NCBI GenBank assembly: GCA_043803105.1
Contig: JAZDKJ010000006.1
Span: forward strand, 364,222 to 428,221
Source of the DNA: Candidatus Woesearchaeota archaeon
GTDB taxonomy: Archaea; Nanobdellota; Nanobdellia; Woesearchaeales; JAZDKJ01
DNA length: 64,000 nt
Direction of reading: 5' to 3'
Both the position numbers and the translations under genes were made by a program. Positions 6,918-56,893 of this stretch are shown piece after piece (the stretch's first letter is position 1; each line of letters begins with the position of its first letter). The notes below the pieces were generated by a model. The model had not been told where the DNA came from and did not search any database. It worked only from the letters and a program-made list of their open reading frames with translations.

Positions 6918-7044
6918 TGGGCCGGACGAGATTTTCTTTGTTTTTTTTTCCAAGTTGCATTCGAACTCGCGACCACCTGATTGCTTTGCAGCTTAAAAGT
7001 CAGGTGCTCTATTGCCCTTATACTCCAGGCTGAGCTACCGGCCC
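6918..7044 (-). tRNA. tRNA-Lys (anticodon UUU) with three putative introns: a mini-insert in the D-loop, the canonical 37/38 site, and a site after the T-loop
   Basis: Minus strand reads GGGCCGG-TA-GCTC-AGCCTGG[AGTATAAGGGCAA]TA-GAGC-A-CCTGA-CTTTTA[GCTGCAAAGCAA]A-TCAGG-TGGTC-GCGAG-TTCGAAT[GCAACTTGGAAAAAAAAACAAAGAAAAT]CTCGT-CCGGCCC-A. The acceptor, D, anticodon and T stems all pair once the bracketed segments are removed. Confidence 0.6.
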
Positions 7045-7059
7045 ATCGTGATTGAAAAA

Positions 7060-7225
7060 CGCCCTGGTCGGGACTTCCAACAACAGACATGCCGTATGAC
7101 ATTTTCAGCTGATTTGAACCCGAGTCGAAGCCTTTTTGCGGTAGCAAACAGTAATTCAACCCTCCCTCTGGTTGAAAAGCCACCTCGACAGGGCTTCATG
7201 ATAGGCCAGACTACACTACCAGGGC
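7060..7225 (-). tRNA. tRNA-Asp (anticodon GUC) with two putative introns: the canonical 37/38 site (about 52 nt) and a site after the T-loop (about 39 nt)
   Basis: Minus strand reads GCCCTGG-TA-GTGTAGTCTGGCCTATCAT-G-AAGCC-CTGTCG[52 nt]A-GGCTT-CGAC-TCGGG-TTCAAAT[CAGCTG...GGAAGT]CCCGA-CCAGGGC-G. The D-arm resembles archaeal tRNA-Asp (GTGTAG...CCAATCAT). Confidence 0.6.
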
Positions 7226-7432: not shown

Positions 7433-7559
7433 TCCCCGAGGCCGGAGTCGAACCAGCAACCTTTCGGTAACGGCTGAGTGTTTTTCACATTCTGCACTGA
7501 GTGCAATATCAAAACACTATCCCTACAGCCGAACGCTCTAGCCATTGAGCTACTCGGGG
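7433..7559 (-). tRNA. tRNA-Tyr (anticodon GUA) with a canonical-position intron of about 49 nt
   Basis: Minus strand reads CCCCGAG-TA-GCTC-AATGGCTA-GAGC-G-TTCGG-CTGTAG[GGATAG...CCGTTA]A-CCGAA-AGGTT-GCTGG-TTCGACT-CCGGC-CTCGGGG-A. The C1-G72 pair is typical of archaeal tRNA-Tyr. Confidence 0.65.
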
Positions 7560-8204: not shown

Positions 8205-10154
8205 TTATTTCTGCGGTTCGCTCGATGTCCAGTCCTGCTTGCACATGTTGTCGATTGCAGAGTATGCAAAGCTGCCCAGAGTATAGTCGAGAAGTTTCCA
8301 TGTCAAATCTCCTGCCAGGGCCTTGTTTGCCTGCTGTTGGGCTTCCCTCTCTGCTATTGCTTTTTGCTCGGCAGGGTCATTGTATGCTCCTGCAGTCTTC
8401 GCACTCAACACACTGGCGTATACTATTCCATCCGTACCGAGCACTGTTTTTTCCCCACTTAGTGCTATCCTTTCAGACCTGATTGGCCCACCCTCATCAA
8501 ATGTGTACTCTGTAACCATGGCCCCTGCTTGTGCAATATAGGTGCTTGATATTGCTCGTGTTGGAGGTGGAAAACTTTGTGGTGTACACACAGTGGGAGG
8601 AAATCCCTGCTTGACATATGCACCGTAAGGATACTCACTGTTAGGTTCTTGGTATTGGTAGTCCTGTTGTGCAAAATAGACTTGGGTGAGTGTAGGATCC
8701 TGCGCAGCTTGGCTGGCGCTTATGTCTATGATATTTATATCCGGATATATTGTGCTTTTCCAGCAGTTGCAGTTTGTATTGAAATGGTAAGAACCTTCTG
8801 ATGCTATGCTTGATATCTTCCCGTTATACCCGTTTTGGGTTAGGTCAGTTTGGAGTGTAAGATAGCTCATCCCTGATTTTAGGAGAGGGGTGTTGCCCCC
8901 AGCCACAATATAGTAACTGTATTTACCTTCCTTGTCAGTTGCAGATTGGCTATCAATTTTGCTTATTATTATCTGCCCCTTGTTCCCGTCAAAAACAACC
9001 CCTGCCTTCACATCATCAACCGTAACTGAAGGTTTGACTACCTGTCCGTTCTTCGCTACCCCATCATACATTTTGTCTCCATTCTTGTCAACCAATCTGT
9101 AATTATAGGGCACGGGTCTTCCAGACAACCTGTTCTTTATGTCCTCAAAGTGCAGGTCAGTGCATGTTGGTTCATTAAAGCTCGTTGACATCCAGTTCCA
9201 TGACTCTGTTACCTGTGATATCATTCCAGGAATGTTGGTGAGCTCCATCAATTTCAATACGCATTTTGGTATGGCTGCCTGCTTGATGATTTCTCCCAGC
9301 TGGCTTGCAAGGTATTTTGCCAGGATTGACATAAGTATCTTAGCCACAGTCTTTAGTATAGAACCTTTCCAGTACATGCACAGCGCTTCATCTAGTTGTT
9401 TCTCGCATGCCTCTGTTGATATTCCTGCGGTGCACGCCTGTTCGATGCAGCAATTATACACCTGGTAGATTGTCTTGAGCTTTCTTATGTTAAATAGTAT
9501 TGCAACTGGGCACAGGCAGTAAGTTGCAGTGTAGATGTTCTCATAAGGATTCAGGTGGAAATCTCCGATAGCCAGGTTTCCGTACCCTCCGCCTGTTGTT
9601 GTCTTTCCAACTCCAACCGTGTTGCTCAGGCTTTCAGAGTTCTGTCCTAGCACCGGCACGTTCTTCACTATTCCTCCGCATCCAAACTTTCCTGTGCACC
9701 AGCCGCAGCTTACAAGACAGCACAATCCCTGCACTACCGGCAATTTGTACACGCTAGACCATGCCTTAAACACTTTTTGCATTGCTATGCAAAGTTTGGT
9801 GCCAGTGAGTAGTCCAAGCAGGCAGCAGTCCCCTGCCTCGTCTCCTGAGAACCCTATTAAGCTTGATATTGCCGATAGCACGATGTCTATGGCGCTCATT
9901 ACAGTGCATATCATGAGCATTATTGACGCTACGCTCTCAAGCGTTCCTATTACTCCATTGTCAAGCGAGTCAGCTATGCCTGAGCTTTTCTTGTGCTTCT
10001 CAATGCACTGCTGTCCAGCCTCAAGGTCTGTTGTGCCAGTTTCCTCTGTTGCCTTACCAGTAACTGGATTTACCTCTGCAAATGCGATTGAAGTGCAAAA
10101 TGGGATGCTGATTATGAGAAAGATTAGGATTTTGGCTACTTGCTGTTTTATCAT
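8205..10154 (-). CDS. Secreted cysteine-rich protein, hypothetical (Sec signal peptide, 649 aa)
   Basis: N-terminus MIKQQVAKILIFLIISIPFCTSIAFA|EV looks like a Sec signal peptide with an AFA cleavage site. It has many Cys pairs (CC, CxC) and no recognisable catalytic motif. Confidence 0.6.
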   Translation of the reverse strand: MIKQQVAKILIFLIISIPFCTSIAFAEVNPVTGKATEETGTTDLEAGQQCIEKHKKSSGIADSLDNGVIGTLESVASIMLMICTVMSAIDIVLSAISSLIGFSGDEAGDCCLLGLLTGTKLCIAMQKVFKAWSSVYKLPVVQGLCCLVSCGWCTGKFGCGGIVKNVPVLGQNSESLSNTVGVGKTTTGGGYGNLAIGDFHLNPYENIYTATYCLCPVAILFNIRKLKTIYQVYNCCIEQACTAGISTEACEKQLDEALCMYWKGSILKTVAKILMSILAKYLASQLGEIIKQAAIPKCVLKLMELTNIPGMISQVTESWNWMSTSFNEPTCTDLHFEDIKNRLSGRPVPYNYRLVDKNGDKMYDGVAKNGQVVKPSVTVDDVKAGVVFDGNKGQIIISKIDSQSATDKEGKYSYYIVAGGNTPLLKSGMSYLTLQTDLTQNGYNGKISSIASEGSYHFNTNCNCWKSTIYPDINIIDISASQAAQDPTLTQVYFAQQDYQYQEPNSEYPYGAYVKQGFPPTVCTPQSFPPPTRAISSTYIAQAGAMVTEYTFDEGGPIRSERIALSGEKTVLGTDGIVYASVLSAKTAGAYNDPAEQKAIAEREAQQQANKALAGDLTWKLLDYTLGSFAYSAIDNMCKQDWTSSEPQK

Positions 10155-10156
10155 TT

Positions 10157-12328
10157 CTAACTTACCTCTGGCGCAACAAACTGTGAATAATCGTTAACTG
10201 TGTAATCTACCTGTTTTGTCTTGCCGTCGCAGTTATCATCGACAGTGATCTTTCCGCTTAGCCTGCTGCCATCAATGACTGTCTCAGTGATGCTGTTTAC
10301 CTCAAGGTTCTGGTCTGAGAGGAAATCCACCATGCAGTAGAATTTTATTTTGCTGCCCCTTAGGCTGGTTGCTTTCCATCCAAAGTTCCCGTTGCCAATT
10401 ATCCAAGGTCCTTCGTAGTTGGAATGCGTCAAGGGATTGTTGTCAAAGTCCACTGTCACTGTGTTGTCTCCTTCTTTATAGGTTGAGGGCTTTATGACCA
10501 CGTTGCCTTTGGCCAGCATTCCCACCCGATAGTTTCCGCTTCCTATTATCATGCTCTTCATTGTTGGGTATAGGACAGTAGGGTTTGCAGACGCCCCGTT
10601 TATTGATATTGTTATCTCGTCTTTTGGCCTTGGCTGGTAGCGTGTTTCCTGCAACATTTCTTCAGGTGTTTTTCCGCAGCTGCTTCGTAAATATCCATTT
10701 GTCAGATAATAGTTCTCCAGGAATTTTCTTGCAAGCACAAGCTCCACTTCAATGCTGTAATTCTTCAGTTTCTCCAGTTTGTATTCGCTTTTTACAGCAT
10801 CAACAATCGTGCTGTAACCTGCCTTCTGCAACTTAAGCTGGAGCCCTGCGCATTTCGGCAGCTTTAAGGAGGCTCTGCCGCTGGAGGCTGTCTCTCCTGC
10901 ATCGCATTCGTTGATTGTGTTGTTGCATTGGAATCTGACACCAACTCCAGGCAATAATCCTGTTTCATTCGTTGTGACTACACTAGCCTGCGTGCTTACG
11001 TTGTTGCAGTCAAAGACACTTTTCATGGTCTCGCTTCCGAAAAATGCTGTCAGGTTCACTTCGCTATATGGATTCTGTCCAGTGCACTGCCTGTTCTGGT
11101 TTCCGCACAGGAAGAGTTGCATCGGGAAATAAAACGAGAAGCCCTGTTTTTCCTGCACCAAATTACCAATAATCTTGGCAGAATCGCTGTCTGTGATTTT
11201 TATCACCACAGGATGTGTCAAGAAGTACTTGAACCTGTAATCATAAATGCAGAAGCTTGGGAGGAATGGTATGCTTGTCTGCGATTCCTTGTCCGGGCTA
11301 ATCACGTTGCCGCTTGTGGGTTTGATGTCAAATTTGTTATCTGATTGTGCAGGGTAACTGAATTCTACGCTTATTGAGCTAAGATTTTCGAAATAATTCC
11401 TGATAAAGCTGTCATAAACTCCCTGGACTGAAGCGTCGTTTGAAATCACTCTTTCAAACTTTGTTCCGGCCATCTTTAGGTATGGAAAATTTTTTGAAAG
11501 TATGCCTTCAAGATTTTCCTTGACTTCATCTTTCGTCCATGTTACGTATTTGCAATCTGTGCTTGAGTCAGAGAAGCTGAACGGCGGAAGGTCTTTTGCT
11601 CCCTTTTCTGCCCCGGTATAGCTGTACAGAGAAATCAGTGACTTTGCGTGGTCTTCAAGATAAGTGTCTGCAAACTCTCTTGTGACTAATTCCATAGCTA
11701 TCTCATGGATCAGCGCCAGGTTTACATCCACCTGATAATTGTAGTTGTCCACTTCATACTGTTTTTCGTTCTGTGTGATCTGGATTGGCCAGTGAAGATC
11801 AATTGTTGCCTGTTTGCCGAACCTCACTGTGGTGTTTATTGTTCCAGTCTTGATAACATAACTTTTTTTTCTGAAGACCTCAAAGTCCGTGCATCTCGGC
11901 AGGTTTTCTGTGATGTATCTAGCTAGCTCATTTTGCATGTAATCTGTTGAAGGTACAGAAATCGAATCTTCGGTGATCCAGTAAGGGACCTTGTTCTTTC
12001 CTGTGGCGTCAATAACCTGAATCATGCTCCCAGTTTTAACCACAGTCCTATCGCCGCTTATGCCTGTTGTTTGTAGCTCGGTAGGAATGTATATGAACCC
12101 CGCCTGAAGCCCAAGGATTTCTATTCCTGAATTTGCATAATCACTTAGACACTGTTCCACATATGTCTTAACCTGTTGAGCAGGCTCTGCAAGTTGTAAT
12201 GCCCTTACCTGTTCGACCTGGATTGGCTGCTCTGTTGTTCTTGCCCAGCTAAAGTAGAAGATTGCCGCAGCTATCAGCATGATTATTCCGATGATTATGA
12301 ATATGGTTATCTGTCCTCTTTTTTCCAT
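10157..12328 (-). CDS. Large (723 aa) surface protein with an archaeal type IV pilin-like (class III) signal peptide
   Basis: N-terminus MEKRG|QITIFIIIGIIMLIAAAIFYF has a basic residue, then Gly at -1 and Gln at +1, then a roughly 20-residue hydrophobic helix. That is the archaeal prepilin-peptidase substrate pattern. The mature part is a large Ser/Thr/Asn-rich extracellular domain. The gene ends in TAG and overlaps the downstream gene start. Confidence 0.6.
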   Translation of the reverse strand: MEKRGQITIFIIIGIIMLIAAAIFYFSWARTTEQPIQVEQVRALQLAEPAQQVKTYVEQCLSDYANSGIEILGLQAGFIYIPTELQTTGISGDRTVVKTGSMIQVIDATGKNKVPYWITEDSISVPSTDYMQNELARYITENLPRCTDFEVFRKKSYVIKTGTINTTVRFGKQATIDLHWPIQITQNEKQYEVDNYNYQVDVNLALIHEIAMELVTREFADTYLEDHAKSLISLYSYTGAEKGAKDLPPFSFSDSSTDCKYVTWTKDEVKENLEGILSKNFPYLKMAGTKFERVISNDASVQGVYDSFIRNYFENLSSISVEFSYPAQSDNKFDIKPTSGNVISPDKESQTSIPFLPSFCIYDYRFKYFLTHPVVIKITDSDSAKIIGNLVQEKQGFSFYFPMQLFLCGNQNRQCTGQNPYSEVNLTAFFGSETMKSVFDCNNVSTQASVVTTNETGLLPGVGVRFQCNNTINECDAGETASSGRASLKLPKCAGLQLKLQKAGYSTIVDAVKSEYKLEKLKNYSIEVELVLARKFLENYYLTNGYLRSSCGKTPEEMLQETRYQPRPKDEITISINGASANPTVLYPTMKSMIIGSGNYRVGMLAKGNVVIKPSTYKEGDNTVTVDFDNNPLTHSNYEGPWIIGNGNFGWKATSLRGSKIKFYCMVDFLSDQNLEVNSITETVIDGSRLSGKITVDDNCDGKTKQVDYTVNDYSQFVAPEVS

Positions 12329-29580: not shown

Positions 29581-29637
29581 TCACTGGTCGGCTCTGTACA
29601 ATAATCAAGGAGCAGTACACTTGACCTTACAATCATT

Positions 29638-29710
29638 GGGGCTGCGGGGGAGCTGCGAAGTCAGCTCGCACCTTCGTGGGACATAAAGTCCCCCTGACAT
29701 CACAATCAAT
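29638..29710 (+). repeat. Leader element of tRNA-Pro: an imperfect copy of the tRNA-Pro 5' end followed by a conserved hairpin
   Basis: GGGGCTGCGGGGGAGC matches tRNA-Pro GGGGCTGTGGGGTAGC at 14 of 16 positions. This is followed by GAGCTG-CGAAG-TCAGCTC-GCACC, the same hairpin family as in the tRNA-Tyr leader, and then a GGGAC-ATAAA-GTCCC hairpin. Confidence 0.45.
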
Positions 29711-29827
29711 GGGGCTGTGGGGTAGCTTGGTCTAGCCTATCTGGTTTGGGGCAATGCAAAAAACCAGATGACCCCGGTTCGAAAGTTTTATAAAAGGCTG
29801 ATTAACTCGAAAATCCGGGCAGCCCCA
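29711..29827 (+). tRNA. tRNA-Pro (anticodon UGG) with two putative introns: the canonical 37/38 site (12 nt) and a site after the T-loop (about 30 nt)
   Basis: GGGGCTG-TG-GGGTAGCTTGGTCTAGCCTA-TCTGG-TTTGGG[GCAATGCAAAAA]A-CCAGA-TGAC-CCCGG-TTCGAAA[GTTTTATAAAAGGCTGATTAACTCGAAAAT]CCGGG-CAGCCCC-A. Confidence 0.6.
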
Positions 29828-29925
29828 CTCATGTTCGTGGTTGGTCTTCCCAATGGGAAGACGCACCCTTTAGGGTGCCGATGCAGTCAACAGGCATTTC
29901 TGTTGATCCGGGCCGCCCCCACTCA
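29828..29925 (+). repeat. Trailer element of tRNA-Pro: three hairpins followed by an imperfect copy of the tRNA-Pro 3' end
   Basis: ATCCGGGCCGCCCCCACTCA resembles the real 3' end ATCCGGGCAGCCCCACTCA. The intervening 74 nt folds into TCTTCCC-AAT-GGGAAGA, GCACCC-TTT-AGGGTGC and CAACAG...CTGTTG hairpins. Confidence 0.4.
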
Positions 29926-38942: not shown

Positions 38943-39188
38943 ATTCTCTGCATATTTTGGGCTGTATTTAAAGGTTTTCAGGATACAAGGAAAGTTAGGA
39001 TTTCATGTCCTTTTGTAATTTCTTCAGAAGGCAATCCACACCTTGTAATATATTATCTTCTTGAGGTTTTCAATATCGATAAATTTTGCGCCCGGTCAGG
39101 GATTTTCACTTGATGAGATTTGAACTGTCAGAAATTCACTGAATTTCTGAGCATGCTCGGAAACATAGTTTCCGACACCTGGAGACCT

Positions 39189-39250
39189 GTGATGGTCAAT
39201 TGCTTTTCAGGCAACCGCGATACCCGATTACGCTAGCCCGGCCTCGCACA
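39189..39250 (+). repeat. Repeat unit U1 of the tyrS-flanking repeat family
   Basis: GTGATGGTCAATTGCTTTTCAGGCAACCGCGA... parallels U3 at 41121 (GTGATAGTTGCTTCAGGCAACCGAGCGA). The flanking GATTACGC(T/G)AGCCC motif recurs at 39376. Confidence 0.35.
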
Positions 39251-39453
39251 TTTCTAAATTGACCTGAACCTTAATATGTTCAATTGAGAATTTTCCGTAA
39301 GTTCTGCGACAAAACCGAGCAAAATCTTATATACCAGAATGCTTACAAACTTTATGACCTGCGATTTAATTACCTGATTACGCGAGCCCTTTTTATATAG
39401 TATTTTCTGTAGATTTGACCAATGGCTCAAGTAGCCTTGGCCAGAAATAAAAT

Positions 39454-39655
39454 GGGGCTGCTGGGATTTCCATGCTTCTAGGACGGTCTTTTGGCATCAG
39501 CCAAAAGCCTTTTCCCAGGTTTTTGCATATTGCAAAAAGCTGTTTGGACCCAGATTAGGAGGTTTTCCGCTGAAAACCTTAGGTCAAATGCCCCGAACCT
39601 CCAGTGATAGTTTCTCGAAGAGTTTCTCTCTTCTCCAAGTTACACTACAGCCCCA
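39454..39655 (+). repeat. About 200-nt highly structured element with tRNA-Pro-like termini (GGGGCTGC... / ...CACTACAGCCCCA); candidate ncRNA or disrupted tRNA-Pro-derived element
   Basis: Starts GGGGCTGCTGGG, like the tRNA-Pro 5' end, and ends CAGCCCCA, like the tRNA-Pro 3' end. Internal perfect hairpins include TTTTGGC-ATCA-GCCAAAA, TTTTTGCA-TAT-TGCAAAAA and AGGTTTTC-CGCT-GAAAACCT, with an outer CTGGGA...TCCCAG stem. The 3' part carries repeat unit U2 (GTGATAGTT...CCAAGTTACACTACAGCCCCA). Confidence 0.4.
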
Positions 39656-46206: not shown

Positions 46207-47511
46207 ATGAAAGTCCTTATTGTAGGTTCAGGAGGTCGGGAGCATGCTCTGGCCTGGAAAATAGCCAAAAGTCCGCTGGTTTCTAAGGTATATTGTGCTC
46301 CAGGTAATGACGGAATTTTGCAGACGCCAAAGGCAGATTGTTTCTCAGAAATCAAGGCAACAGATATTGAAGGCCTTGTTTCCCTGGCGAAAAAGAAAGG
46401 TGTTGATTTCACTCTTTTTGGTCCTGAAGATTCTTTGGTCAACGGCGCCTATGACAGGTTCAGGAAAGAAGGCCGTCTTGCTTTAGGCCCTGATAGCTGG
46501 GGAGCTGATATTGAAGGCAGCAAAGCCTGGACAAAGGACTTGATGCAAAACTATGGTATACCTACTGCCTTTGGCCAGTCAACCTCAAGGATTTCACAAG
46601 CTAAGGATATTGCCAAGGAATTTGTGCAGCATTATGGTGGTGTAGTTGTCAAGGCAGATGGGCCTTGTGGCGGAAAGGGAGTTTTTGTATGCAGAACCTT
46701 GCTTGAAGCCATTTTAGCCATAGACCGGATTATGGTCAAGCGAGTCTTTGGCCCTGCTGGAAAGCGAGTTGTCTTGGAAGAACTGCTTGTTGGCGAGGAA
46801 GCATCATTCATGGCATTGGTAAACAGCGTCGAAGATTATATCTTGCCTTTTGCTTCATCGCAAGACCATAAGAGGCGTGATGATGGAGATAAAGGCCCAA
46901 TGACCGGCGGCATGGGTGCTTATTCGCCTGCGCCTGTAGTAACACCTGTAATTCATAAAATGATAATGAAAGACACCTTGTACCAGACTATGCGCGCTAT
47001 GGCTCAGGAAGGCAGGCCTTATGTTGGGGTCATGTATGCTGGCCTAATGATAGTTAAAGGAAAACCAAAGGTGCTGGAATTCAACTGCCGCTTCGGAGAC
47101 CCAGAGATCCAGCCAATACTAATGAGGATGAAACCTGACATTATGCCTTTGCTCATTGGCTGTGCAGAAGGCAACCTCAGAAAACAGACGGTTGAATGGT
47201 ACGACGACGCTGCGGTCTGCGTAGTTATGGCCTCAAAAGGTTATCCTGAATCAGAGCAATTGAGAGGCCAGCAGATTCACGGCCTTGAGGATGTTACACA
47301 CATGGAAAATGTCTATGCCTTCCATGCAGGCACTGCTTACAAGAATGGTGTTTGGACTAATAAGGGTGGCCGTGTCTTAGGTGTAACTGGCAGAGCGCCC
47401 ACCATAAAGGAGGCACAAGACCTTGCCTATGAAGCAGCCAAAATGATTACATTCAATGGTGCTCATTATCGCACTGACATAGGCAATAAAGCAATCCAGA
47501 AAACAGTCTAG
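46207..47511 (+). CDS. purD: Phosphoribosylamine-glycine ligase
   Basis: MKVLIVGSGGREHALAWK N-terminus and an ATP-grasp layout. Length is 434 aa and the stop is TAG. Confidence 0.9.
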   Translation: MKVLIVGSGGREHALAWKIAKSPLVSKVYCAPGNDGILQTPKADCFSEIKATDIEGLVSLAKKKGVDFTLFGPEDSLVNGAYDRFRKEGRLALGPDSWGADIEGSKAWTKDLMQNYGIPTAFGQSTSRISQAKDIAKEFVQHYGGVVVKADGPCGGKGVFVCRTLLEAILAIDRIMVKRVFGPAGKRVVLEELLVGEEASFMALVNSVEDYILPFASSQDHKRRDDGDKGPMTGGMGAYSPAPVVTPVIHKMIMKDTLYQTMRAMAQEGRPYVGVMYAGLMIVKGKPKVLEFNCRFGDPEIQPILMRMKPDIMPLLIGCAEGNLRKQTVEWYDDAAVCVVMASKGYPESEQLRGQQIHGLEDVTHMENVYAFHAGTAYKNGVWTNKGGRVLGVTGRAPTIKEAQDLAYEAAKMITFNGAHYRTDIGNKAIQKTV

Positions 47512-47550
47512 TATTGCGAATAACAGAAAAGCAAGTTAGAGGTATCTCAA

Positions 47551-48504
47551 GTGTCTGATAAACTGTTGCTGATTGGTATGGGTTCGCCTAGTGATTTGAA
47601 GCATTTTGAAAAGCCTTATGCAAGCCTTGACGGCACCATCCCGGAATATCTCTTAAAAAAGGGTGTGAGACTATATTTGAGCCCTGGCACAGGAAAGCCT
47701 CTTGTTACCTCAATACATCGCACCACTGATACAGCAATGAAATTTGCAGATTCTCTTGATAGCTTGGTTGCTATAGAAGGAAGAAATGACAGGTTTGTTG
47801 CCTTATTGTTTGGCGGGCTTGCTTTTCATCTTGGTGGGGCTTTTGCTGGAAAGAATCCTGCAATACCGACGATTGTAGCTGCGATGGATGAGCATGCCTT
47901 CATGAGCGCCTATGCTATGCCTAAAGGAACTCCGGTTGGATTGGTTGGAGTCAACCAGCTTGACAAGGCTGTGATGATGGCAACTAAGATTCTTGACTAT
48001 AACGATTCTAACCGAGCATGGATCATACACCATCATTTCACCAATCCTCCATCGACTGATAGGGAGCATCTCGTAAAGTCTTCATATGATGCTGCCACTC
48101 AGCTTCTGCAAAAGTGCAATGTTTTGTCTTGGGCAGTTGAATTTATTTTTGTCGCGCAGAAGAAATATAAAGGTGTTTCATTAAGCCTGCCAGCGCTGCC
48201 ACAAACCGCAATAGAAATGGACAAGAGGTTAATTTTGGGTTCTGTTTCGTTTGTCAATCCTGCTGCGTTAAGTCCTTGCACCACAGGTCAGTATCAGACC
48301 CTCATGGATGTTGCTGGTCAGCTCAAGAACTCTTTGCTGGTCCATGACCCTTACAACGCAGCCCTTTTTACAATCCAGGTTATCGCAAACAAGTATCCAG
48401 ACTTACGTCTTGGGCTTGACAGGATAAAGGAAGAATCGAGGCTGCCGACTGCGAAGGGTGGGTATTCTCAGTTTTTGCCAATAAAAAAGGATGATTTCAA
48501 GTGA
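47551..48504 (+). CDS. PurE-like (AIR carboxylase-related) protein, unusually long at 317 aa
   Basis: The N-terminal half has a divergent PurE pattern (LLIGMGSPSD, SIHRTTD, FGGLAFHLGG, PTIVAA). The C-terminal half is unassigned. Confidence 0.4.
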   Translation: MSDKLLLIGMGSPSDLKHFEKPYASLDGTIPEYLLKKGVRLYLSPGTGKPLVTSIHRTTDTAMKFADSLDSLVAIEGRNDRFVALLFGGLAFHLGGAFAGKNPAIPTIVAAMDEHAFMSAYAMPKGTPVGLVGVNQLDKAVMMATKILDYNDSNRAWIIHHHFTNPPSTDREHLVKSSYDAATQLLQKCNVLSWAVEFIFVAQKKYKGVSLSLPALPQTAIEMDKRLILGSVSFVNPAALSPCTTGQYQTLMDVAGQLKNSLLVHDPYNAALFTIQVIANKYPDLRLGLDRIKEESRLPTAKGGYSQFLPIKKDDFK

Positions 48505-48515
48505 GGTGAAATAAC

Positions 48516-49796
48516 GTGGGCAGTACAAAAGATTTGGTTACTACAGGAAAGCTTGGTGAGCAATGGTATGCGCCTCCAACCGCTGTCAAGTTTGGTTATG
48601 GACCAATGCAGGTAAAAGGAACCTTCTCTGTGGCAGACTTAAAGAAGCTTATTCCTGAGTCTATCATAAAAAACAAGGCAGAAGCCCTTGCCATGCAGCA
48701 GGCAGCATTTGCAGAGTATCTGCAATATAATCACCCTGAGATCCCAAATTCCTATTATGGTATATTGGACAAAGATTTCAAACGTACTGACGTTCAGCAC
48801 TTGTTGTCTAAGGGAGAAACATCGAGCATCGTAGTCATGAAGCTTGCCCACACGCCAGATAGCTTTTGCGAAGGTAACCTTGATAAATATCGGGCTGCCC
48901 TGCAATCAGGAGAATTACAGTGCGGCGTTGCAGACGTGGAGTCAATCTTCAGGCTGGGCTTTCCGCTCGGCAGCTCGACTTTCGAGGATATTTTCAAGGC
49001 TGTCAGGTTAGGAGAAAAGTACGAGCATTTAGCCACTTACAATGAGACTGCGGCCGAACTCGACAAAATCAGGGCTATGGTTTCCGAGCAAGGTCTTGAC
49101 ATCTTCGAAGGTTTGGAGGAATTGCTTCAAAAAAAAGGCCTGGGCACCACTATTCCGAATCCAGGATTTGTCCTCAAGCATTTTGTTTATGATACAACCA
49201 CAAAATTCGTGAGTTACGGCGACCTTAAGATATCTGAGGAAGATGCTGAGAAACTTAGCGGCCTAAGCCATGAGAGTTATCAGCTCTGGAAGAATGACAT
49301 GTTCCCGAAGATTGCTGCTGCGCAGATAAAATTTTGCATGGAAAGGAACATATTCAATATTGATGGCAAGAGTGAAATCGTGGCATACCATCGCATGCCA
49401 GTTGTTGCCGACTTCCAATGCACTGTTGACGAAAACAGGGAAATGATAGTTGTGGCGGTTGACGGGGTTGAATGGCTGATTCCCAGCAATAAGGAAATAC
49501 AGCGGGCGATTTTCAGAAAAGAGGGAGTTTATGCAGCAAAGGCTGAGGCTTTAAGGCGGTCAGTAAAAGACAAAGGAGTCTTTGACCATTGGAAGGAGTA
49601 TTTTCCGGCTGTCATCAAGGAGCGAAAGATTGATTTGGTGGGTGTTACAGAATTCTCGTGTGATTTGATGGCAAATGCAATCATGGAAGTTGCCAACCGG
49701 ACTCTCGGCCATAGGGTGTTTGATGCAAAGCCGCTTGACTCGTGGGTTAGAGACTTTGTTCCTTATGCTAGTAAGTTACAAAGGCAAGGTGATTAA
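48516..49796 (+). CDS. SAICAR-synthetase-like protein (divergent PurC, long at 426 aa)
   Basis: The GSTKDL N-terminus is PurC-like (GKxRDxY) and the gene sits in the purine cluster. The assignment is tentative. Confidence 0.35.
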   Translation: MGSTKDLVTTGKLGEQWYAPPTAVKFGYGPMQVKGTFSVADLKKLIPESIIKNKAEALAMQQAAFAEYLQYNHPEIPNSYYGILDKDFKRTDVQHLLSKGETSSIVVMKLAHTPDSFCEGNLDKYRAALQSGELQCGVADVESIFRLGFPLGSSTFEDIFKAVRLGEKYEHLATYNETAAELDKIRAMVSEQGLDIFEGLEELLQKKGLGTTIPNPGFVLKHFVYDTTTKFVSYGDLKISEEDAEKLSGLSHESYQLWKNDMFPKIAAAQIKFCMERNIFNIDGKSEIVAYHRMPVVADFQCTVDENREMIVVAVDGVEWLIPSNKEIQRAIFRKEGVYAAKAEALRRSVKDKGVFDHWKEYFPAVIKERKIDLVGVTEFSCDLMANAIMEVANRTLGHRVFDAKPLDSWVRDFVPYASKLQRQGD

Positions 49797-49798
49797 GA

Positions 49799-51751
49799 AT
49801 GGGGCATGTTTTGTTCGGTCGTTATCCAAGCAAGGAGATGAAGGAAATCATCGGTCCTCAACCCAAGGATTACAGGACGCTTTGCTCTCCTGATATGGAA
49901 AATATTTTCTCCAAGGAGTCAAAACATAATGGTTGGGATGACGTTTGGTATGCCCATATGAAAGCACAAAAAGAAACAGGCCTGCCAATACCGCAGGAGC
50001 ATTTGGATGCCTTCCAAGTTATTCTACACAAGATTAATTATCAACGCATGGATGAGATTGAACGAATCCTGAAGCATGATGTTGATTCTGGCAGGAAGCA
50101 TCGTGCTGAAGAATTGGAGAAGGTGTTGGAAGGCTCTTCCGCATGGCTGCATGCTGGTGCAACTAGCTGCACGGTCACAGATAATCAGGAGCTTACTGCA
50201 ATGTATAACGGCTTGCAGCTCTTGGCAGACAAAGGATACAATCTCCTTAACAAGCTTGAGCGTTTTGATTCTGGTCTGATTGTTAACCAGCACAAGTCAG
50301 ATCTAGAATATGCCTTGAATATATTAGACAGCAGGATCAACAACTTCAAGATAAGAGGTGCAAAAGGCACCACAGGCACCCAGGCAAGCTATCTCGAGCT
50401 GTTTGATGGCAATGCAGAAAAGGTCAGCGCTTTCGAACAAGCCTTCATCCAAAGACTTGGGTTTGGTAGGGCATTCACGATAACCGGTCAGACCTATCCA
50501 CGGATTGCGGATTACCAGCTCGTATCAACCTTGGGCGTGCTTGCGACTGCGCTTTCAAACATTGCAGAGTACTCAGTCAGCTTTTCCGAAGAATTAGCTC
50601 ATCCTTTGTCTGATGTGAAGAGCTTTGCAAAAAGCGCTGCGCACATGGCATCCAAGCAGTGGTTGGAGCGAACACTAGATGACTCTGCCCAGAGACGGAT
50701 TATCATCGAAGATTCCTTCAAGGCAGTTGAGTATGTTCTGGATAGGCTGAACTCTGCAGAAATTAACCCGATAGAGATAAGGGACCCTGACTTTCAGCTA
50801 AGCCAGCCATTGTCAGAAACGCTTGAAGGCACTACAGGCAAGGCTCTTGAGCTGTTGCGTGACAAGACTGTGAATACAATTTTCAGAATTCACACATTTG
50901 CAGAGAAGTTCAAGGACCAGCCTTGCATGGCATACACTCATTATCAGGTTGCCCAGCCTACAACTGTAGGCAAGCGGCTTGACCTTTGGGCCTATAATTA
51001 TGTTTTGGCACTTCAGGACATTGAAGACTTTTTGGAGTCTGACAAGAACCTTGAAGTAAGCCAGAATATTGTTGAATATCGCATCGCCACACTGTTAACA
51101 CAGATTGCGGTTGCTGCCCATAAGCAAGCCGCAGATGTCAGGTTGTGCCAGCATGACGGGATAATGACTGAGCCTTTTGCAATTGGCCAAAAAGGTTCAA
51201 GTGCTATGCCTCATAAGCGCAATCCTATGAAGAATGAGCGCATCTGTTCTCTATCTACAGAGTTGATTCAGTATGCTGATTCCAATAATGCCAACCCTTA
51301 TAGCTTTTTGCTAGCTGACTCAGTCTTGAATCTTGCAATGGCTGTTTTTGTTGAGGATACTCCTAAACAAAAGGGCTTTACTGTTAACCCAGAGGTTATT
51401 GCAAAGAATTTCAGGGAATTTCTGCCATATATCTGCCTAGAGCAACTGGTTAACAAAGTGCTCAAGACAGGAAAATACAAGCGCGAGGAGCTGTATGACA
51501 TCGCTTACAATTGCTCAATACAGGCCCGAACCAATGTCGAGGTACACGGCAAGGCAAACAACACGCTTGAATTAGTGTGCGAATACCCTCAATTTGGGCT
51601 CACTCCAGAAATGATTCCTGCGATGCTTGATCCTATGCTCTATATCGGTCTAGCGTCAAAACAGGTAGAATTGTTTGGAAGGGTGCATGTGGACCCCTTG
51701 AAAGAGAAGTACAAATCTGTTCAGGCGTTAGAGTCTGACGTGAAAGTTTAA
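49799..51751 (+). CDS. purB: Adenylosuccinate lyase (fumarate-lyase family), long form
   Basis: PurB-like N-terminus (RYPSKEMKEI...LCSPDMENIFSKE) and the lyase signature GSSAMPHKRNP. Length is 650 aa, which implies insertions. Confidence 0.7.
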   Translation: MGHVLFGRYPSKEMKEIIGPQPKDYRTLCSPDMENIFSKESKHNGWDDVWYAHMKAQKETGLPIPQEHLDAFQVILHKINYQRMDEIERILKHDVDSGRKHRAEELEKVLEGSSAWLHAGATSCTVTDNQELTAMYNGLQLLADKGYNLLNKLERFDSGLIVNQHKSDLEYALNILDSRINNFKIRGAKGTTGTQASYLELFDGNAEKVSAFEQAFIQRLGFGRAFTITGQTYPRIADYQLVSTLGVLATALSNIAEYSVSFSEELAHPLSDVKSFAKSAAHMASKQWLERTLDDSAQRRIIIEDSFKAVEYVLDRLNSAEINPIEIRDPDFQLSQPLSETLEGTTGKALELLRDKTVNTIFRIHTFAEKFKDQPCMAYTHYQVAQPTTVGKRLDLWAYNYVLALQDIEDFLESDKNLEVSQNIVEYRIATLLTQIAVAAHKQAADVRLCQHDGIMTEPFAIGQKGSSAMPHKRNPMKNERICSLSTELIQYADSNNANPYSFLLADSVLNLAMAVFVEDTPKQKGFTVNPEVIAKNFREFLPYICLEQLVNKVLKTGKYKREELYDIAYNCSIQARTNVEVHGKANNTLELVCEYPQFGLTPEMIPAMLDPMLYIGLASKQVELFGRVHVDPLKEKYKSVQALESDVKV

Positions 51752-53220
51752 TGCGACCACTAAAAAACGAGCCTTCAAGGAGCTTGAAGGAGTACAGGCT
51801 TCTTACAGGCAGGACTACTGCTAAGACTGTTATGTCTTCTGTCAATCTCAGGACAAGACTCTGCACGAGTCCTAATGGCAAGGACTTTCTCTATCTGAAC
51901 ATTCCATTGATGAGCGCAGCAATGCAGGCTGTTTCAGGAACAAGGTTATCTGTTGCGCTTGCACAGTTTGGAGGCATTTCTGTTTTGCCGTGCTCTATTC
52001 CGGTTCAGGAGCAGGTTGCAATAATCAAGGAAGTGAAGCGCTTCAAGGCAGGCTTCCAGGAGGATGTGACAACCTTTTCCAAGGATGACCTGATTGCCGA
52101 TGCTGTTAAGGTAATGAGTACAAAAGGCTATCACACTTTTCCCATAACAGAAAATGGGAGATCGCACGGGAGGCTCCTTGGCATATTATCAGACAGGAAT
52201 TTTGACCCCAAAGAGCACGTAAAGAATAAGATCGAGAAACACATGGTGAAGAATGTTGTGACAGCAAGGGAGGGCATTTCATTGCCTGATGCAAACAAGG
52301 TGATGATAAAATACGGCAGGAGCATACTACCTATTGTTGACTCAAGGAAAAACCTACGATACGTTGTCTTCAAGAAAGACCTGGAAAAGCACAGGAACTT
52401 TCCTGATGAGCTCGTCGACCATAACAAGCGCTATATGATCGCTGCAGCAGTCTCGACCTTGCCTAGTGACCACTCAAGGATTGATGCCCTGATTAAGGCA
52501 GGAGTTGATGCCTTGATCATTGATTCCTCCGATGGTTTTTCTGATTTCCAAATTGAGACCTTGAGCTATATCCGTAATAAAACAAGGAAGATTCCGGTGA
52601 TTGGGGGAAATATAATCACTAAAGAAGGCTTTTTTCACTTGGCTGAAGCTGGTTTTGATGCAGTTAAGGTCGGAATGGGAATTGGTTCTGGCTGCACGAC
52701 ACAAGAGCAGAAAGGTGTTGGTCGAGGCCAGGCTTCTGCCTTGATTGATGTCTGCGCTGCTCGCGACGAGTTTTATTCAAACACCAACAGATATCTTCCA
52801 ATAATTTCTGATGGCAGCATTTCAAATCCTGGCCAGATTGTAATTGCCTTGGCTCTAGGCGCAGATTCTGTCATGATGGGTCGGTTCTTTGCCCAATTCT
52901 CCGAGTCTGAAGGCGGTGTGAGGAATCATCCTCAATACGGTCCATTGAAAGAATTCTGGATGGAAGCCTCTGCCAGGGCGAGGAGTTATGGCCGCTATGA
53001 AACCAAGCCAGAATTCTTTTTTGAGGAAGGTGTCGAAGGCTATGTTCCGCACATTGGATCAATCTATGATAATCTCGGCCAGACTTTGATCAAGATAAAG
53101 TCTGCCTTGTCCAATGCTGGCTGCAAGAATATAGATGAATTGCACAAGACTGCAGTGCTTGAATTGCAATCAATAGCATCATTGCAGGATGCTGCAGTGC
53201 ATGATATTATAACTAAGTGA
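51751..53220 (+). CDS. guaB: IMP dehydrogenase
   Basis: TIM barrel with an inserted CBS pair. Catalytic loop GMGIGSGCTTQEQKGVGRGQ. Confidence 0.75.
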   Translation: MRPLKNEPSRSLKEYRLLTGRTTAKTVMSSVNLRTRLCTSPNGKDFLYLNIPLMSAAMQAVSGTRLSVALAQFGGISVLPCSIPVQEQVAIIKEVKRFKAGFQEDVTTFSKDDLIADAVKVMSTKGYHTFPITENGRSHGRLLGILSDRNFDPKEHVKNKIEKHMVKNVVTAREGISLPDANKVMIKYGRSILPIVDSRKNLRYVVFKKDLEKHRNFPDELVDHNKRYMIAAAVSTLPSDHSRIDALIKAGVDALIIDSSDGFSDFQIETLSYIRNKTRKIPVIGGNIITKEGFFHLAEAGFDAVKVGMGIGSGCTTQEQKGVGRGQASALIDVCAARDEFYSNTNRYLPIISDGSISNPGQIVIALALGADSVMMGRFFAQFSESEGGVRNHPQYGPLKEFWMEASARARSYGRYETKPEFFFEEGVEGYVPHIGSIYDNLGQTLIKIKSALSNAGCKNIDELHKTAVLELQSIASLQDAAVHDIITK

Positions 53221-53230
53221 GGTGTCATAA

Positions 53231-54643
53231 ATGGGTTTTTCAGAATTGGTGTCAGGTAAGCAGACAATTGCTATTGTTTGCAATCAATGGGGTGATTCAG
53301 GCAAGGGAAAGTTTGTCCACTTGTTTAGCGAGTGGGCTGACATTATCGCACGTGGTACTGGAGGTCCGAATGCAGGTCATACTGTTGTAATAAACGACAA
53401 GACATACATCTTCCACACGATCCCTTCTGGAATTTTGTATGACTGCGCTGGAAAGACTAATGTGATGGGACCTGGAATGGTTATTGATTTGAAAGGCCTT
53501 GGTGAAGAGTTGGACACGCTTGACAAAGAGCGTGCCTCATATAATCACTTGGTTATCAGCAATGCAGCAAATGTGATTTTGCCCCAGCACAAGATTCGAG
53601 ATGGTGCTGCTTTCGCATCCATGGCCAAAGGGTCTGTTGGTTCAACCGGCCGAGGCATCGGCCCTTGCTATGCTGATGCGACTGCCAGAACAGGAATTAC
53701 CTTAGCAGATCTGTTTGACAAAGATATATTGGCAAAGAAATTGAGGGAAAACCTCAAGAACTATCCTGATTTGGTTGACAAGCTAGACGTGGACGAGATT
53801 ATTGAAGAGCAGCTCAAACATTTTGAAAGAATAAGACCTTTTGTCCGCGAAACGCATTATCTTATGAACGAGTCCCTTGCTGCAGGAAAGAAGATCCTCC
53901 TGGAAGGTGCACAGGGATTATTGCTGAGCATAATGTTTGGTACCACACGATATCAGACCAGCTCTGATTGCTCTATTATCGGAACAGCTCAAGGTGTAGG
54001 CCTGAATCCAGCAGTCGTTGACTTAACTCTTGGGATAGTCAAGGCACCTTATATGACTCGTGTTGGCAACGGCCCATTCCCTACTGAGTTTGGAGGAGTA
54101 CTGGCTGAAGAGTATTGTGCAGATGTGAGCCACAACAAGAAGGTTGAACTGGCAAATTACAATCTTGAAGCGCTTCTACGCTCTCCACGCGAGTTCGACC
54201 AGGGGTTATATGCGAGAATTAAAGGAAATGAGTATGGGGCCACCACTGGCCGTCCAAGGAGAACCGGATGGATTGACTTGGTTGCCCTTCGCTATGCTGC
54301 CATGATTAACAAGAGCGCAAAGGCGAAAAGGGCTGATGTTATCATAACAAAGCCCGATGTGATGGATGAGTTTGACAAGATAAAATTATGTGTTGGCTAC
54401 ACCCTTGGGGGTGTGATCACCACCAGGTTCCCGCACCGTTCTGAACTGCTTGAACAATGTGCACCTATTTACGTAACCATGGACGGGTGGAAGACCCCAA
54501 TAAGCGACTTCAGGGATTACAATGAAATAAAGAGGAAAGCGCCAAACCTTGCCAACATTCTGTTCTTCATTGAAGAATATGCTGGTGTTAATATCAGGAG
54601 CGTATCTGTTGGCGCTGATAATGACCAAACAATCTTTAGGTGA
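53231..54643 (+). CDS. purA: Adenylosuccinate synthetase
   Basis: P-loop QWGDSGKGKFV and GGPNAGHTV are present. Length is 470 aa. Confidence 0.9.
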   Translation: MGFSELVSGKQTIAIVCNQWGDSGKGKFVHLFSEWADIIARGTGGPNAGHTVVINDKTYIFHTIPSGILYDCAGKTNVMGPGMVIDLKGLGEELDTLDKERASYNHLVISNAANVILPQHKIRDGAAFASMAKGSVGSTGRGIGPCYADATARTGITLADLFDKDILAKKLRENLKNYPDLVDKLDVDEIIEEQLKHFERIRPFVRETHYLMNESLAAGKKILLEGAQGLLLSIMFGTTRYQTSSDCSIIGTAQGVGLNPAVVDLTLGIVKAPYMTRVGNGPFPTEFGGVLAEEYCADVSHNKKVELANYNLEALLRSPREFDQGLYARIKGNEYGATTGRPRRTGWIDLVALRYAAMINKSAKAKRADVIITKPDVMDEFDKIKLCVGYTLGGVITTRFPHRSELLEQCAPIYVTMDGWKTPISDFRDYNEIKRKAPNLANILFFIEEYAGVNIRSVSVGADNDQTIFR

Positions 54644-54652
54644 GGTGTAAAA

Positions 54653-55426
54653 ATGCAAAAAACTTTAATGGATGTTTTAAAAGATTTTCCCTATCTAGGG
54701 AGGTTTGTTCTTATAGGCGTTGACCTCACAGATACATTTAATTTTATAGCCTGTGGCATCCAGGGTCGAAGCCCGCCAAGTAGAGAAAGGTATTATGAAG
54801 AAAGCACTGACAGGAAGACTCTCTCTGTAAAACCTCTTGCGTATGACAAGATGGTCCGTGAATTCCAGGGAGGCAACCTTAGCGCCAATCCAGAACTTCT
54901 GTTATACAATGTGATAAAAGCTCACCTGACCGGCGTTGCAGTCAGCAACGGAAAACAGACTGATTCGATTGCTGACCTTATACAACCTGGCCAAAAGCCA
55001 AAATCCATTCTTGAAAGAGGCTTATCCAATTGGAGTTATGAATCTGATCCTCCAAATAACACTCCAAGAGTTAACGGGGTGGTGAATGATAATCAGGCAT
55101 GCTTGGCAATTCTGAAAAAGGACAAGGATGGATCACGATTGCCACTATATTTTAACGTCCCGATGACAAGAGGCAGAGGCATGTTACTCCCAACTTATAC
55201 AGGGGTTAATATGAATCCTCTTCCTTCGTTTCAAGGCGAGCCTCTGGAATTGGAGCTCACTGCCACAACCCCAACTGAGATGGTGCTTATGCTTTATGGT
55301 GCCTTAGTGCCACAGTCAGGAGATGATTTACGCGTTGCTGTCGGAGCAATGTTCCAGAACAGGATGGACTTTTCCACAATGCTCTACAGCAAGAGCCGTT
55401 ACGAAAAACCAGTCGAGGTGAAATAA
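54653..55426 (+). CDS. purO: Archaeal IMP cyclohydrolase
   Basis: YLGRFVLIGVDLTD...FIACGIQGRSPPSRE parallels the PurO N-terminus (YIGRF.V.G......A.RVSSRSFPNR). An AICARFT-only purH follows, which fits that functional split. Confidence 0.5.
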   Translation: MQKTLMDVLKDFPYLGRFVLIGVDLTDTFNFIACGIQGRSPPSRERYYEESTDRKTLSVKPLAYDKMVREFQGGNLSANPELLLYNVIKAHLTGVAVSNGKQTDSIADLIQPGQKPKSILERGLSNWSYESDPPNNTPRVNGVVNDNQACLAILKKDKDGSRLPLYFNVPMTRGRGMLLPTYTGVNMNPLPSFQGEPLELELTATTPTEMVLMLYGALVPQSGDDLRVAVGAMFQNRMDFSTMLYSKSRYEKPVEVK

Positions 55427-55427
55427 G

Positions 55428-56891: not shown

Positions 56892-56893
56892 GA

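Follow-up and report, generated by a model that had tools for sequence, protein, structure and literature searches.

Multiply interrupted tRNA-Lys and tRNA-Asp genes with predicted bulge-helix-bulge introns in a Woesearchaeota-like archaeon

Interrupted tRNA genes beside rpoH and rpoB

The 64,000-nt stretch of archaeal DNA analysed here (the window, in whose positions all coordinates are given) carries at 6918-7225 of its minus strand two adjacent genes, for tRNA-Asp(GUC) and tRNA-Lys(UUU), each interrupted at more than one site. They belong to a minus-strand cluster that reads Tyr, Asp, Lys (Table 1), with 15 nt between the Asp and Lys genes and the start codon of rpoH 12 nt downstream of the tRNA-Lys 3' end. 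The cluster is flanked by rpoH, split rpoB''/rpoB' genes and rpoA1, and further along the window, which has a G+C content of 44%, lie genes for aRF1, an aIF5B-like GTPase and a Tyr/Trp-tRNA synthetase as well as a purine-synthesis block. Because the gene set is archaeal (split rpoB, rpoA1, aRF1, aIF5B-like) and the RpoB' protein of the window shares 72-77% identity with proteins from bins that carry the label Woesearchaeota or Nanoarchaeia, the host is, as judged from gene content and protein identity, a Woesearchaeota-like DPANN archaeon.

An earlier note on this DNA had placed the Lys and Asp genes in this interval and had held that they fold into cloverleafs once certain segments are taken out. 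This is borne out, with ARAGORN accepting both products, and the segment lengths are confirmed: 13 (D-loop), 12 (37/38) and 28 nt (T-loop) for tRNA-Lys, and 52 (37/38) and 39 nt (T-loop) for tRNA-Asp. Removal of the three Lys segments turns a gene of 127 nt into a tRNA of 74 nt, called ttt by ARAGORN, in which all stems are paired and the residues U8, A14, G18G19 and A21 and the T-loop UUCGAAU are in place. The spliced tRNA-Asp (75 nt from an unspliced precursor of 166 nt; ARAGORN call gtc) likewise has U8, A14, G18G19 and A21, together with the T-loop UUCAAAU and the discriminator base G73, and its stems are paired with the sole exception of a U13.U22 mismatch in the D-stem. Read by eye, the flanks of the Asp gene show a TATA-like TTAAAT about 25 nt upstream and a T5 run after the 3' end.

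The two genes are not alone in being interrupted. All five identifiable tRNA genes of the window are, with 11 introns in total, and four of the five have an intron at the T-loop site 59/60. One of these is the tRNA-Pro gene at 29711, for which the earlier note had also claimed the T-loop interruption; it is indeed there, along with a 37/38 intron. A default ARAGORN run finds zero tRNAs in the whole 64-kb window, and tRNA-Tyr is the sole tRNA detected either by ARAGORN with its intron option or by Rfam at the gathering score. In-silico removal of the introns yields a canonical tRNA from each of the five genes, judged against a 7/4/5/5-bp cloverleaf with 7-nt anticodon and T loops, and ARAGORN names them all (Lys ttt, Asp gtc, Tyr gta, Pro tgg and Pro cgg). 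The exons of these five genes are colinear, within 127-202 nt, and we therefore rejected for them the class of split or permuted tRNA genes known from Nanoarchaeum, Caldivirga, Thermofilum and C. merolae.

Table 1. Interrupted tRNA genes of the window and their introns. H, base pairs formed in the four-pair central helix of the splicing motif; h, length of the outer helix in bp.
Feature	Positions	Strand	Description
tRNA-Lys(UUU) gene	6918..7044	-	exons 7044-7025, 7011-6994, 6981-6960, 6931-6918; three introns
Lys intron 1, 13 nt	7012..7024	-	D-loop site 19/20, between G19 and U20
Lys intron 2, 12 nt	6982..6993	-	canonical 37/38; H 4/4, outer helix 7 bp
Lys intron 3, 28 nt, A-rich	6932..6959	-	59/60 in T-loop
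tRNA-Asp(GUC) gene	7060..7225	-	exons 7225-7186, 7133-7113, 7073-7060; two introns
Asp intron 1, 52 nt, internal hairpin	7134..7185	-	canonical 37/38; H 3/4, outer helix 7 bp, inner helix 6 bp
Asp intron 2, 39 nt	7074..7112	-	59/60; H 4/4, h 5
tRNA-Tyr(GUA)	7433..7559	-	one 54-nt 37/38 intron, 7469-7522; H 3/4, h 5; Rfam RF00005 54.6 bits
tRNA-Pro(UGG)	29711..29827	+	12-nt 37/38 intron, 29751-29762; 30-nt 59/60 intron, 29784-29813
tRNA-Pro(CGG)	39453..39654	-	introns: D-loop, 22 nt, 39612-39633; 37/38, 28 nt, 39564-39591; 59/60, 76 nt, 39467-39542

Splice sites and the bulge-helix-bulge motif

Each junction was scored for the archaeal bulge-helix-bulge (BHB) motif, in which a 4-bp helix (H) lies between two 3-nt bulges, splicing takes place behind the second base of each bulge, and exon bases pair with one another to form an outer helix (h). 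The position of the T-loop inserts is ambiguous by 3-4 positions because bases are repeated at the junctions, and every equivalent register was scored. Only one of them, 59/60 (UUCRAA^intron^U60, where a caret marks a splice site), gives a bulge-helix-bulge, and the intron must therefore lie inside the T-loop, before nucleotide 60, rather than after nucleotide 60 and the T-loop as the earlier note had proposed. The registers 57/58, 58/59 and 60/61 were rejected: they give an H of 0-3/4 with the outer helix absent or shorter, except for Lys 58/59, which has an H of 2/4 and a 2-bp outer helix. A mirror-image motif, in which the 5' end of the intron pairs with the downstream exon, never outscored the canonical geometry.

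At the 59/60 site of tRNA-Asp, U54-U55-C56-A57 pairs with UGGA between the bulges A58,A59^U and A,G^U60, and the T-stem forms the outer helix. Unconstrained minimum-energy folding draws this entire bulge-helix-bulge, both in the 166-nt precursor and in the arm alone. The corresponding motif of tRNA-Lys has U54-U55-C56 paired with G-A-A and a G57.A mismatch (H 3/4), bulges A58,A59^U and A,A^U60, the 5-bp T-stem as outer helix and no inner helix; the other T-loop registers of this gene give an H of 1-2/4, and 59/60 alone combines an H of 3/4 with an outer helix of 5 bp. The 59/60 site is laid out as the T-arm counterpart of 37/38: in both, a stem of 5 bp carries a loop of 7 nt, and the intron follows the sixth base of that loop. 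The T-loop bases U54-R57 are constant in most of these genes, and a 3' box of the form YGAA plus two bases rebuilds the motif against them, so that 59/60 is available in any tRNA.

The D-loop intron of tRNA-Lys has a full helix H, in which G15-C16-C17-U17a pairs with GGGC of the intron, flanked by the bulges G18,G19^A and A,A^U20. A loop of 6 nt caps the intron and gives a motif of the bulge-helix-loop type, whose outer helix is the D-stem, beyond an A14.A21 mismatch. This helix turns up in unconstrained minimum-energy folds, and removal of the 13-nt intron restores the usual D-loop AGCCUGGUA. A 14-nt version of the intron was discarded, since it would eliminate nucleotide 20; the register set by the motif gives 13 nt and AGCCUGGUA.

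A bulge-helix-bulge can form at every junction. Over the 11 window introns in the canonical register, H is 4/4 at eight and 3/4 at three. The outer helix measures 5-7 bp at all 37/38 and 59/60 sites, the inner helix just 0-1 bp at nine of the 11, and unconstrained minimum-energy folding recovers H for five of the 11, including Asp 59/60 and Lys 19/20. In the strict hBHBh' form an outer helix and an inner helix (h'), of at least 2 bp each, would stand right beside the bulges; most of the motifs as modelled here are relaxed forms, either hBH or bulge-helix-loop.

Orthologous loci and the weighing of explanations

For comparison, 80 loci were fetched around rpoB', and the spliced tRNAs of the window were aligned to them by a dynamic programme that allows long gaps, which yielded 58 Lys and 41 Asp orthologues. 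The same Asp-Lys pair stands upstream of rpoH-rpoB in about 58 related genome bins, and the exons are on average 95.8% (Lys, 58 loci) and 93.3% (Asp, 41 loci) identical to those of the window. An orthologue has between zero and three introns, three Lys and two Asp genes being intron-free. The introns of the relatives are 11-212 nt long and limited to the D-loop (19/20 in Lys, 20/20a in Asp), 30/31 (in Lys only), 37/38 and 59/60.

At these sites the pairing of the motif is kept. A full helix (H 4/4) is found in 73-100% of the relatives' introns, Asp 37/38 excepted, versus 1-5% after shuffling of the introns. For tRNA-Lys the counts are 31/33 in the D-loop (2% with shuffled introns), 16/16 at 30/31, 20/23 at 37/38 and 22/30 at 59/60, where the remaining 8/30 have H 3/4 and the outer helix is 5 bp in 29/30; for tRNA-Asp they are 13/18 in the D-loop and 30/35 at 59/60. 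The low value at Asp 37/38 (9/24) is largely due to nine introns that the alignment placed one base off because those genes have C38.

The bases that pair across the splice sites also vary together. At 59/60, C55 faces G in 9/11 cases and U55 faces A or G in 19/19, while C or U stands opposite G57 in 27/30 and U opposite A57 in 29/32; the consensus of the intron box is YGAA followed by two nucleotides, most often AG or AA. In the D-loop the relatives form the helices GCCU:GGGC, GCUU:GAGC, CCUG:CAGG, UCUG:CAGA, CUUG:CAAG and UUCG:CGAA; the 3' box GGGC-AA^U is present in 20/33 of their Lys D-loop introns, and the variant GCUU:GAGC is a compensatory change. Outside the boxes, the bodies of introns at a given site resemble one another no more than unrelated sequences do. 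Recent transposition of introns within a genome, of the kind known from Thermoproteales, was considered and rejected, as within-genome pairs score a mean of 9.8 versus 9.5 for random between-genome pairs, with a 95th percentile of 14 for both.

The exons, for their part, preserve the tRNA fold. The alignment of spliced Lys sequences has a cloverleaf that is 99.8% paired with 9 compensatory pairs, matched by none of 500 shuffles, and that of spliced Asp sequences one that is 96.4% paired with 5 compensatory pairs; among these are T-stem and anticodon-stem pairs whose partners lie on opposite sides of an intron. Taken together, the conserved exons, compensatory pairs, covarying boxes and freely diverging intron bodies show, as far as the alignments reach, that selection maintains the spliced product and the cleavage motif but no other part of the inserts. 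By the same alignments a chance origin of the interrupted genes is excluded, given their recurrence in about 58 relatives with covariation.

On this evidence, which is drawn from sequence comparison, both loci are very probably functional archaeal tRNA genes with protein-spliced bulge-helix-bulge introns. Several observations weigh against such a reading. A mismatch separates H from the outer helix in the D-loop motifs, which makes them relaxed rather than strict. None of the five 37/38 motifs, that of tRNA-Lys included, is the minimum-energy fold when its arm is folded alone, A-U-rich alternatives being favoured. The weakest motif of the set is Lys 59/60, with 3/4 pairs (two A-U and one G-C) and no inner helix, and minimum-energy folding does not recover it. 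The exon boundaries of the relatives come from our own spliced-alignment script, which favours similarity to the query and not base pairing. Finally, a Pfam scan of the 46 open reading frames (ORFs) of the window found neither EndA nor RtcB, and tblastn with M. jannaschii EndA (query sequence checked against PDB 1A79) gave no match in the window or in the 80 loci.

Three other explanations have to be set against these data. Pseudogenes, in which insertions have disrupted former tRNA genes whose functional counterparts lie at other loci of the genome, would fit the failure of ARAGORN and Rfam to recognise the Lys and Asp loci; our view covers 64 kb of the genome, which leaves room for other copies, and a possible pseudogene, the tRNA-Phe-like element described below, is present in the window. 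Decay would, however, produce none of what the relatives display: exons 93-96% identical over about 58 genomes with stems kept by compensatory changes, inserts only where a bulge-helix-bulge can form and with pairing bases that vary in step with the exons, and a maintained synteny with rpoH-rpoB. We consider pseudogenes strongly disfavoured and very unlikely. Alternatively the inserts, some of which are as short as 12-13 nt, might be retained in mature tRNAs with enlarged D- and T-loops. Against this, they part G19 from U20 and A59 from U60 and so would break the tertiary core of D-loop and T-loop, a 37/38 insert left in place would wreck the anticodon loop, insert length runs from 0 to 212 nt among close orthologues, and the sole conserved part of each insert is the box of the cleavage motif; retention is accordingly extremely improbable.

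The inserts could also be removed by means other than EndA and a ligase, for instance by self-splicing or by a stem-measuring nuclease. The window search that did not find EndA would sit well with this, as would the several relaxed motifs, lacking an inner helix or mismatched beside the outer helix, of a kind reported to be left uncut by classical alpha4 or alpha'2 enzymes (PMC3239211). Yet the inserts, at 12-76 nt, are far below the hundreds of nucleotides of a group I or group II ribozyme core, and the Rfam intron families (group I/II) have no matches in the window inserts even at E-value thresholds of 5-10, so that both intron groups were rejected. The conserved 3-4-3 geometry with splicing after the second bulge base is, moreover, the signature of EndA, and relaxed motifs are cut by broad-specificity EndAs already known (PMC3239211, PMC5829648). 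We give this explanation hardly any credence. A search for C/D-box small RNAs within the introns returned only sub-threshold Rfam matches, on the opposite strand.

For protein-spliced introns we infer the action of EndA and a ligase, the order of intron removal and the co-transcription of the Asp and Lys genes, whose precursor is probably one joint transcript. At each junction, four exon bases ending two nucleotides before the 5' splice site would pair with an intron box of four bases that ends two nucleotides before the 3' splice site, to give a 4-bp helix flanked by two 3-nt bulges; EndA would then cut after the second bulge nucleotide on both sides and an RtcB-type ligase would join the exons. 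At 59/60 the T-stem would serve as the outer helix and the box would pair with U54-U55-C56-R57, such that the T-arm imitates an anticodon arm with a 37/38 intron, and at 19/20 the GGGC box would pair with G15-U17a beside the D-stem. Because the inner helix is often missing, the D-loop motif is mismatched and classical enzymes are reported not to cut such motifs, an enzyme of broad specificity is likely for this lineage, in line with the proposal of Kaneta et al. 2018 (PMC5829648) for DPANN.

The relatives also differ from the window in ways that are of interest in themselves. An intron at 30/31, in the anticodon stem, is present in 16 Lys relatives (L001, L005, L006, L010, L012, L015-L017, L021, L026, L027, L031, L039, L045, L075 and L080) and absent from the window gene. 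It replaces the 37/38 intron, except in L080, which has both; the 3' box GGUG-AA^A is common to 15/16 and H is 4/4 in all 16. Position 55 of tRNA is almost universally U (pseudouridine), and in 17/58 Lys relatives (for example L001, L005, L006, L010, L015, L016, L027, L031, L045, L069 and L077) the T-loop reads UCCGAAU, with C55. A 59/60 intron is present in 11/17 of these genes and absent from 6/17, and because of these six, C55 on the aligned sequences belongs to the mature tRNA of one clade rather than arising as an artefact of splicing; we know of no precedent for it, no literature search for one having been made. Among the Asp relatives, all 35 with A57 (UUCAAAU/UUCAAGU) have a 59/60 intron and none of the six with G57 (UUCGAAU/UUCGACU) does, an association that may reflect phylogeny only.

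Other features of the window and relation to known systems

The two tRNA-Pro genes of the window follow the same pattern. Both introns of tRNA-Pro(UGG) have an H of 4/4, and its T-loop pairing, UUCG:CGAA, is recovered by minimum-energy folding. In tRNA-Pro(CGG), a previously unnoticed gene that both ARAGORN and Rfam missed, each of the three introns has an H of 4/4. Minimum-energy folding finds its D-loop and T-loop motifs, and the spliced product is 76 nt long. Its predicted mature T-loop is UCCAAAU, with a C at position 55 that pairs with the intron box UGGA.

Around tRNA-Pro(UGG) lies a region of about 294 nt (29627-29925, plus strand) that folds far better than shuffled sequence (z = -3.86). 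A second copy of the 10-nt leader and first 17 nt of the gene occurs about 75 nt upstream (29627-29655), its 3' end recurs (U CCGGG CCGCCCC CA) at 29906-29920 behind three perfect hairpins, and 29782-29900 is a weak match to HgcC (19.4 bits versus a gathering score of 50). An outer tRNA gene that would hold tRNA-Pro(UGG) in its intron was rejected, as an exhaustive search for BHB-compatible paths yielded nothing but chimeras in which parts of the inner gene are used again.

A tRNA-Phe(GAA)-like element occupies 39085-39243 on the minus strand, and a similar fragment is found near 39365-39398 on the same strand. Its 5' acceptor strand, D-arm and anticodon arm are clean (22.3 bits for the Rfam tRNA family versus a gathering score of 29); two perfect hairpins follow, and then a textbook junction of the 59/60 type (UUCA AA^...UGAA AA^U CCCUG ACCGGGC G). 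Within 39085-39243 no 5' strand of the T-stem was found and the acceptor is paired at just 5/7 positions, not one of 323,554 candidate splicings yielded a recognisable tRNA, and a scan of the metagenome with a pattern for the D-arm gave chance matches only. The element may be a pseudogene, a split half or a case of a junction type that we have not modelled. The strand opposite it has C/D-box small nucleolar RNA (snoRNA) matches below threshold at 39105-39197.

Among the neighbouring protein genes, the purine-biosynthesis block (46207-58884, plus strand) encodes GAR synthetase, an AIR carboxylase domain, an adenylosuccinate lyase-like protein, IMP dehydrogenase, adenylosuccinate synthetase and archaeal IMP cyclohydrolase and includes AICAR transformylase-like genes and an AIR synthase-like gene. 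Nucleotide synthesis is said to be missing from many DPANN genomes, and the block is notable for that reason. Directly upstream of the tRNA cluster are two adjoining large ORFs (649 and 723 aa; 8205-12328, minus strand) with zero Pfam matches. A match to the C/D-box RNA SNORD29 below threshold (11905-11968, plus strand; 31.4 bits versus a gathering score of 48, E = 0.031) lies within and antisense to the 723-aa ORF at 10157-12328. Many of the loci with RpoB' 74-77% identical to that of the window and with the Asp-Lys synteny (for example L003, L005, L008 and L010) come from bins titled 'uncultured Methanosarcinales archaeon', and the bin of L049 is titled 'Candidatus Aminicenantes bacterium'; these titles are probably cases of mislabelling or contamination in public records.

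Introns at these sites have been described before. Among the known non-canonical positions Yoshihisa 2014 lists 20/21, 30/31 and 59/60 (PMC4090602), and Fujishima et al. 2011 report that the pre-tRNA-Cys of ARMAN-2 has a 13-nt hBH intron at 59/60 that is cleaved in vitro by the organism's own EndA (PMC3239211); a tRNA-Pro of ARMAN-2 has introns at 53/54 and 59/60 (PMC3239211). In view of these reports the T-loop site is not peculiar to this lineage. Nor is a novel endonuclease specificity, such as the lineage-specific one that the earlier note derived from the shared site, either required or demonstrated, even though Lys, Asp and Pro do share the site. The note is broadly correct that only a few archaeal lineages are known to have tRNAs with multiple introns outside 37/38, with the amendment that DPANN archaea are already among these and that some algal nuclear and nucleomorph genomes have them too.

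ARMAN-2 is similar to the present case in its DPANN host, its 59/60 site, its very short introns and its relaxed hBH motif without an inner helix (PMC3239211). It differs in having a three-unit epsilon2 EndA, whereas multiple other DPANN lineages are assigned the alpha4-type with an L3 loop (PMC5829648); in addition, a gene of the window combines 59/60 with 19/20 and 37/38, and 59/60 is used by four of the five window tRNAs. In the Thermoproteales, up to three introns per tRNA gene are known (PMC4033280), at sites that include 20/21, 22/23, 29/30, 30/31, 45/46, 53/54, 56/57 and 59/60 (Sugahara et al. 2008, as relayed by PMC4033280 and PMC4090602). The two systems are alike in having up to three BHB introns per tRNA, in the site classes D-loop, 30/31, 37/38 and 59/60, and in being polymorphic between relatives. 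They are unlike in that the Thermoproteales, as Crenarchaeota, are of another phylum and lifestyle, that just four sites are used in the Lys and Asp genes here, and that introns within one genome here resemble each other no more than random pairs do. Cryptophyte and chlorarachniophyte nucleomorphs and Cyanidioschyzon merolae (PMC4090602, PMC3728597) also have introns in the D- and T-arms, two or three per gene, but their hosts are eukaryotic, introns of only 3 nt occur and permuted genes are found among them, in contrast to the archaeal genes with colinear exons described here.

In the DPANN survey of Kaneta et al. 2018 (PMC5829648), lineage and phenomenon are the same as here. In that work tRNA genes were predicted for four DPANN genomes, one of them a Woesearchaeota bin, the marked disruption of DPANN tRNAs was tied to alpha4-type EndAs with an L3 loop, for which a broad specificity was proposed, and gaps in the tRNA sets predicted for some DPANN and Asgard genomes were taken to point to undetected disrupted genes. 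What it gives are proportions per genome, and its main text does not have these loci, the hot-spot pattern or the intron/exon covariation. The genes of the window are, then, a fresh example of a kind of archaeal tRNA gene that is already known, and the picture of archaeal tRNA introns is unchanged.

The value of the finding lies in the annotation gap that it exposes and in covariation data that define a minimal substrate. The gap is one already suspected by Kaneta et al. 2018 (PMC5829648). In the relatives L001-L080, ARAGORN with its intron option took the non-canonical intron of interrupted tRNA-Lys genes for the anticodon region and so gave these genes the wrong names, 'tRNA-Stop(tta)' (5 cases) or 'tRNA-Gln(ctg)', and automated tRNA tables for related bins likely contain such mis-calls. 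Since standard tools miss the interrupted genes, tRNA counts, completeness estimates and codon-usage inferences for DPANN bins go wrong without BHB-aware prediction.

A wider generalisation is speculative and, in our estimate, rather unlikely to hold: that in this Woesearchaeota lineage essentially every tRNA gene is interrupted (as are all five here, with their 11 introns), beyond the 56% reported for ARMAN-2, and that introns are confined to the hot spots 19/20-20/20a, 30/31, 37/38 and 59/60, where a short 3' box and a conserved tRNA segment rebuild a motif like that of the anticodon arm. If true, it would point to introns being gained in a self-templating manner, for instance through reverse splicing at conserved loops. 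It would also point to a DPANN EndA with no requirement beyond an outer helix, a 4-bp helix and a bulge, and the Phe-like element and the duplicated, structured flanks of tRNA-Pro(UGG) might be further forms of disruption.

For the lineage itself, the covariation of intron and exon defines the minimal substrate of its endonuclease, consisting of the outer helix, the 4-bp helix and the bulges, often without an inner helix. The loci supply concrete substrates that bear on whether alpha4-type EndAs with an L3 loop have a broad specificity, and in the approximately 58 orthologous Asp-Lys loci the gain and loss of introns at fixed sites can be followed as a natural series.

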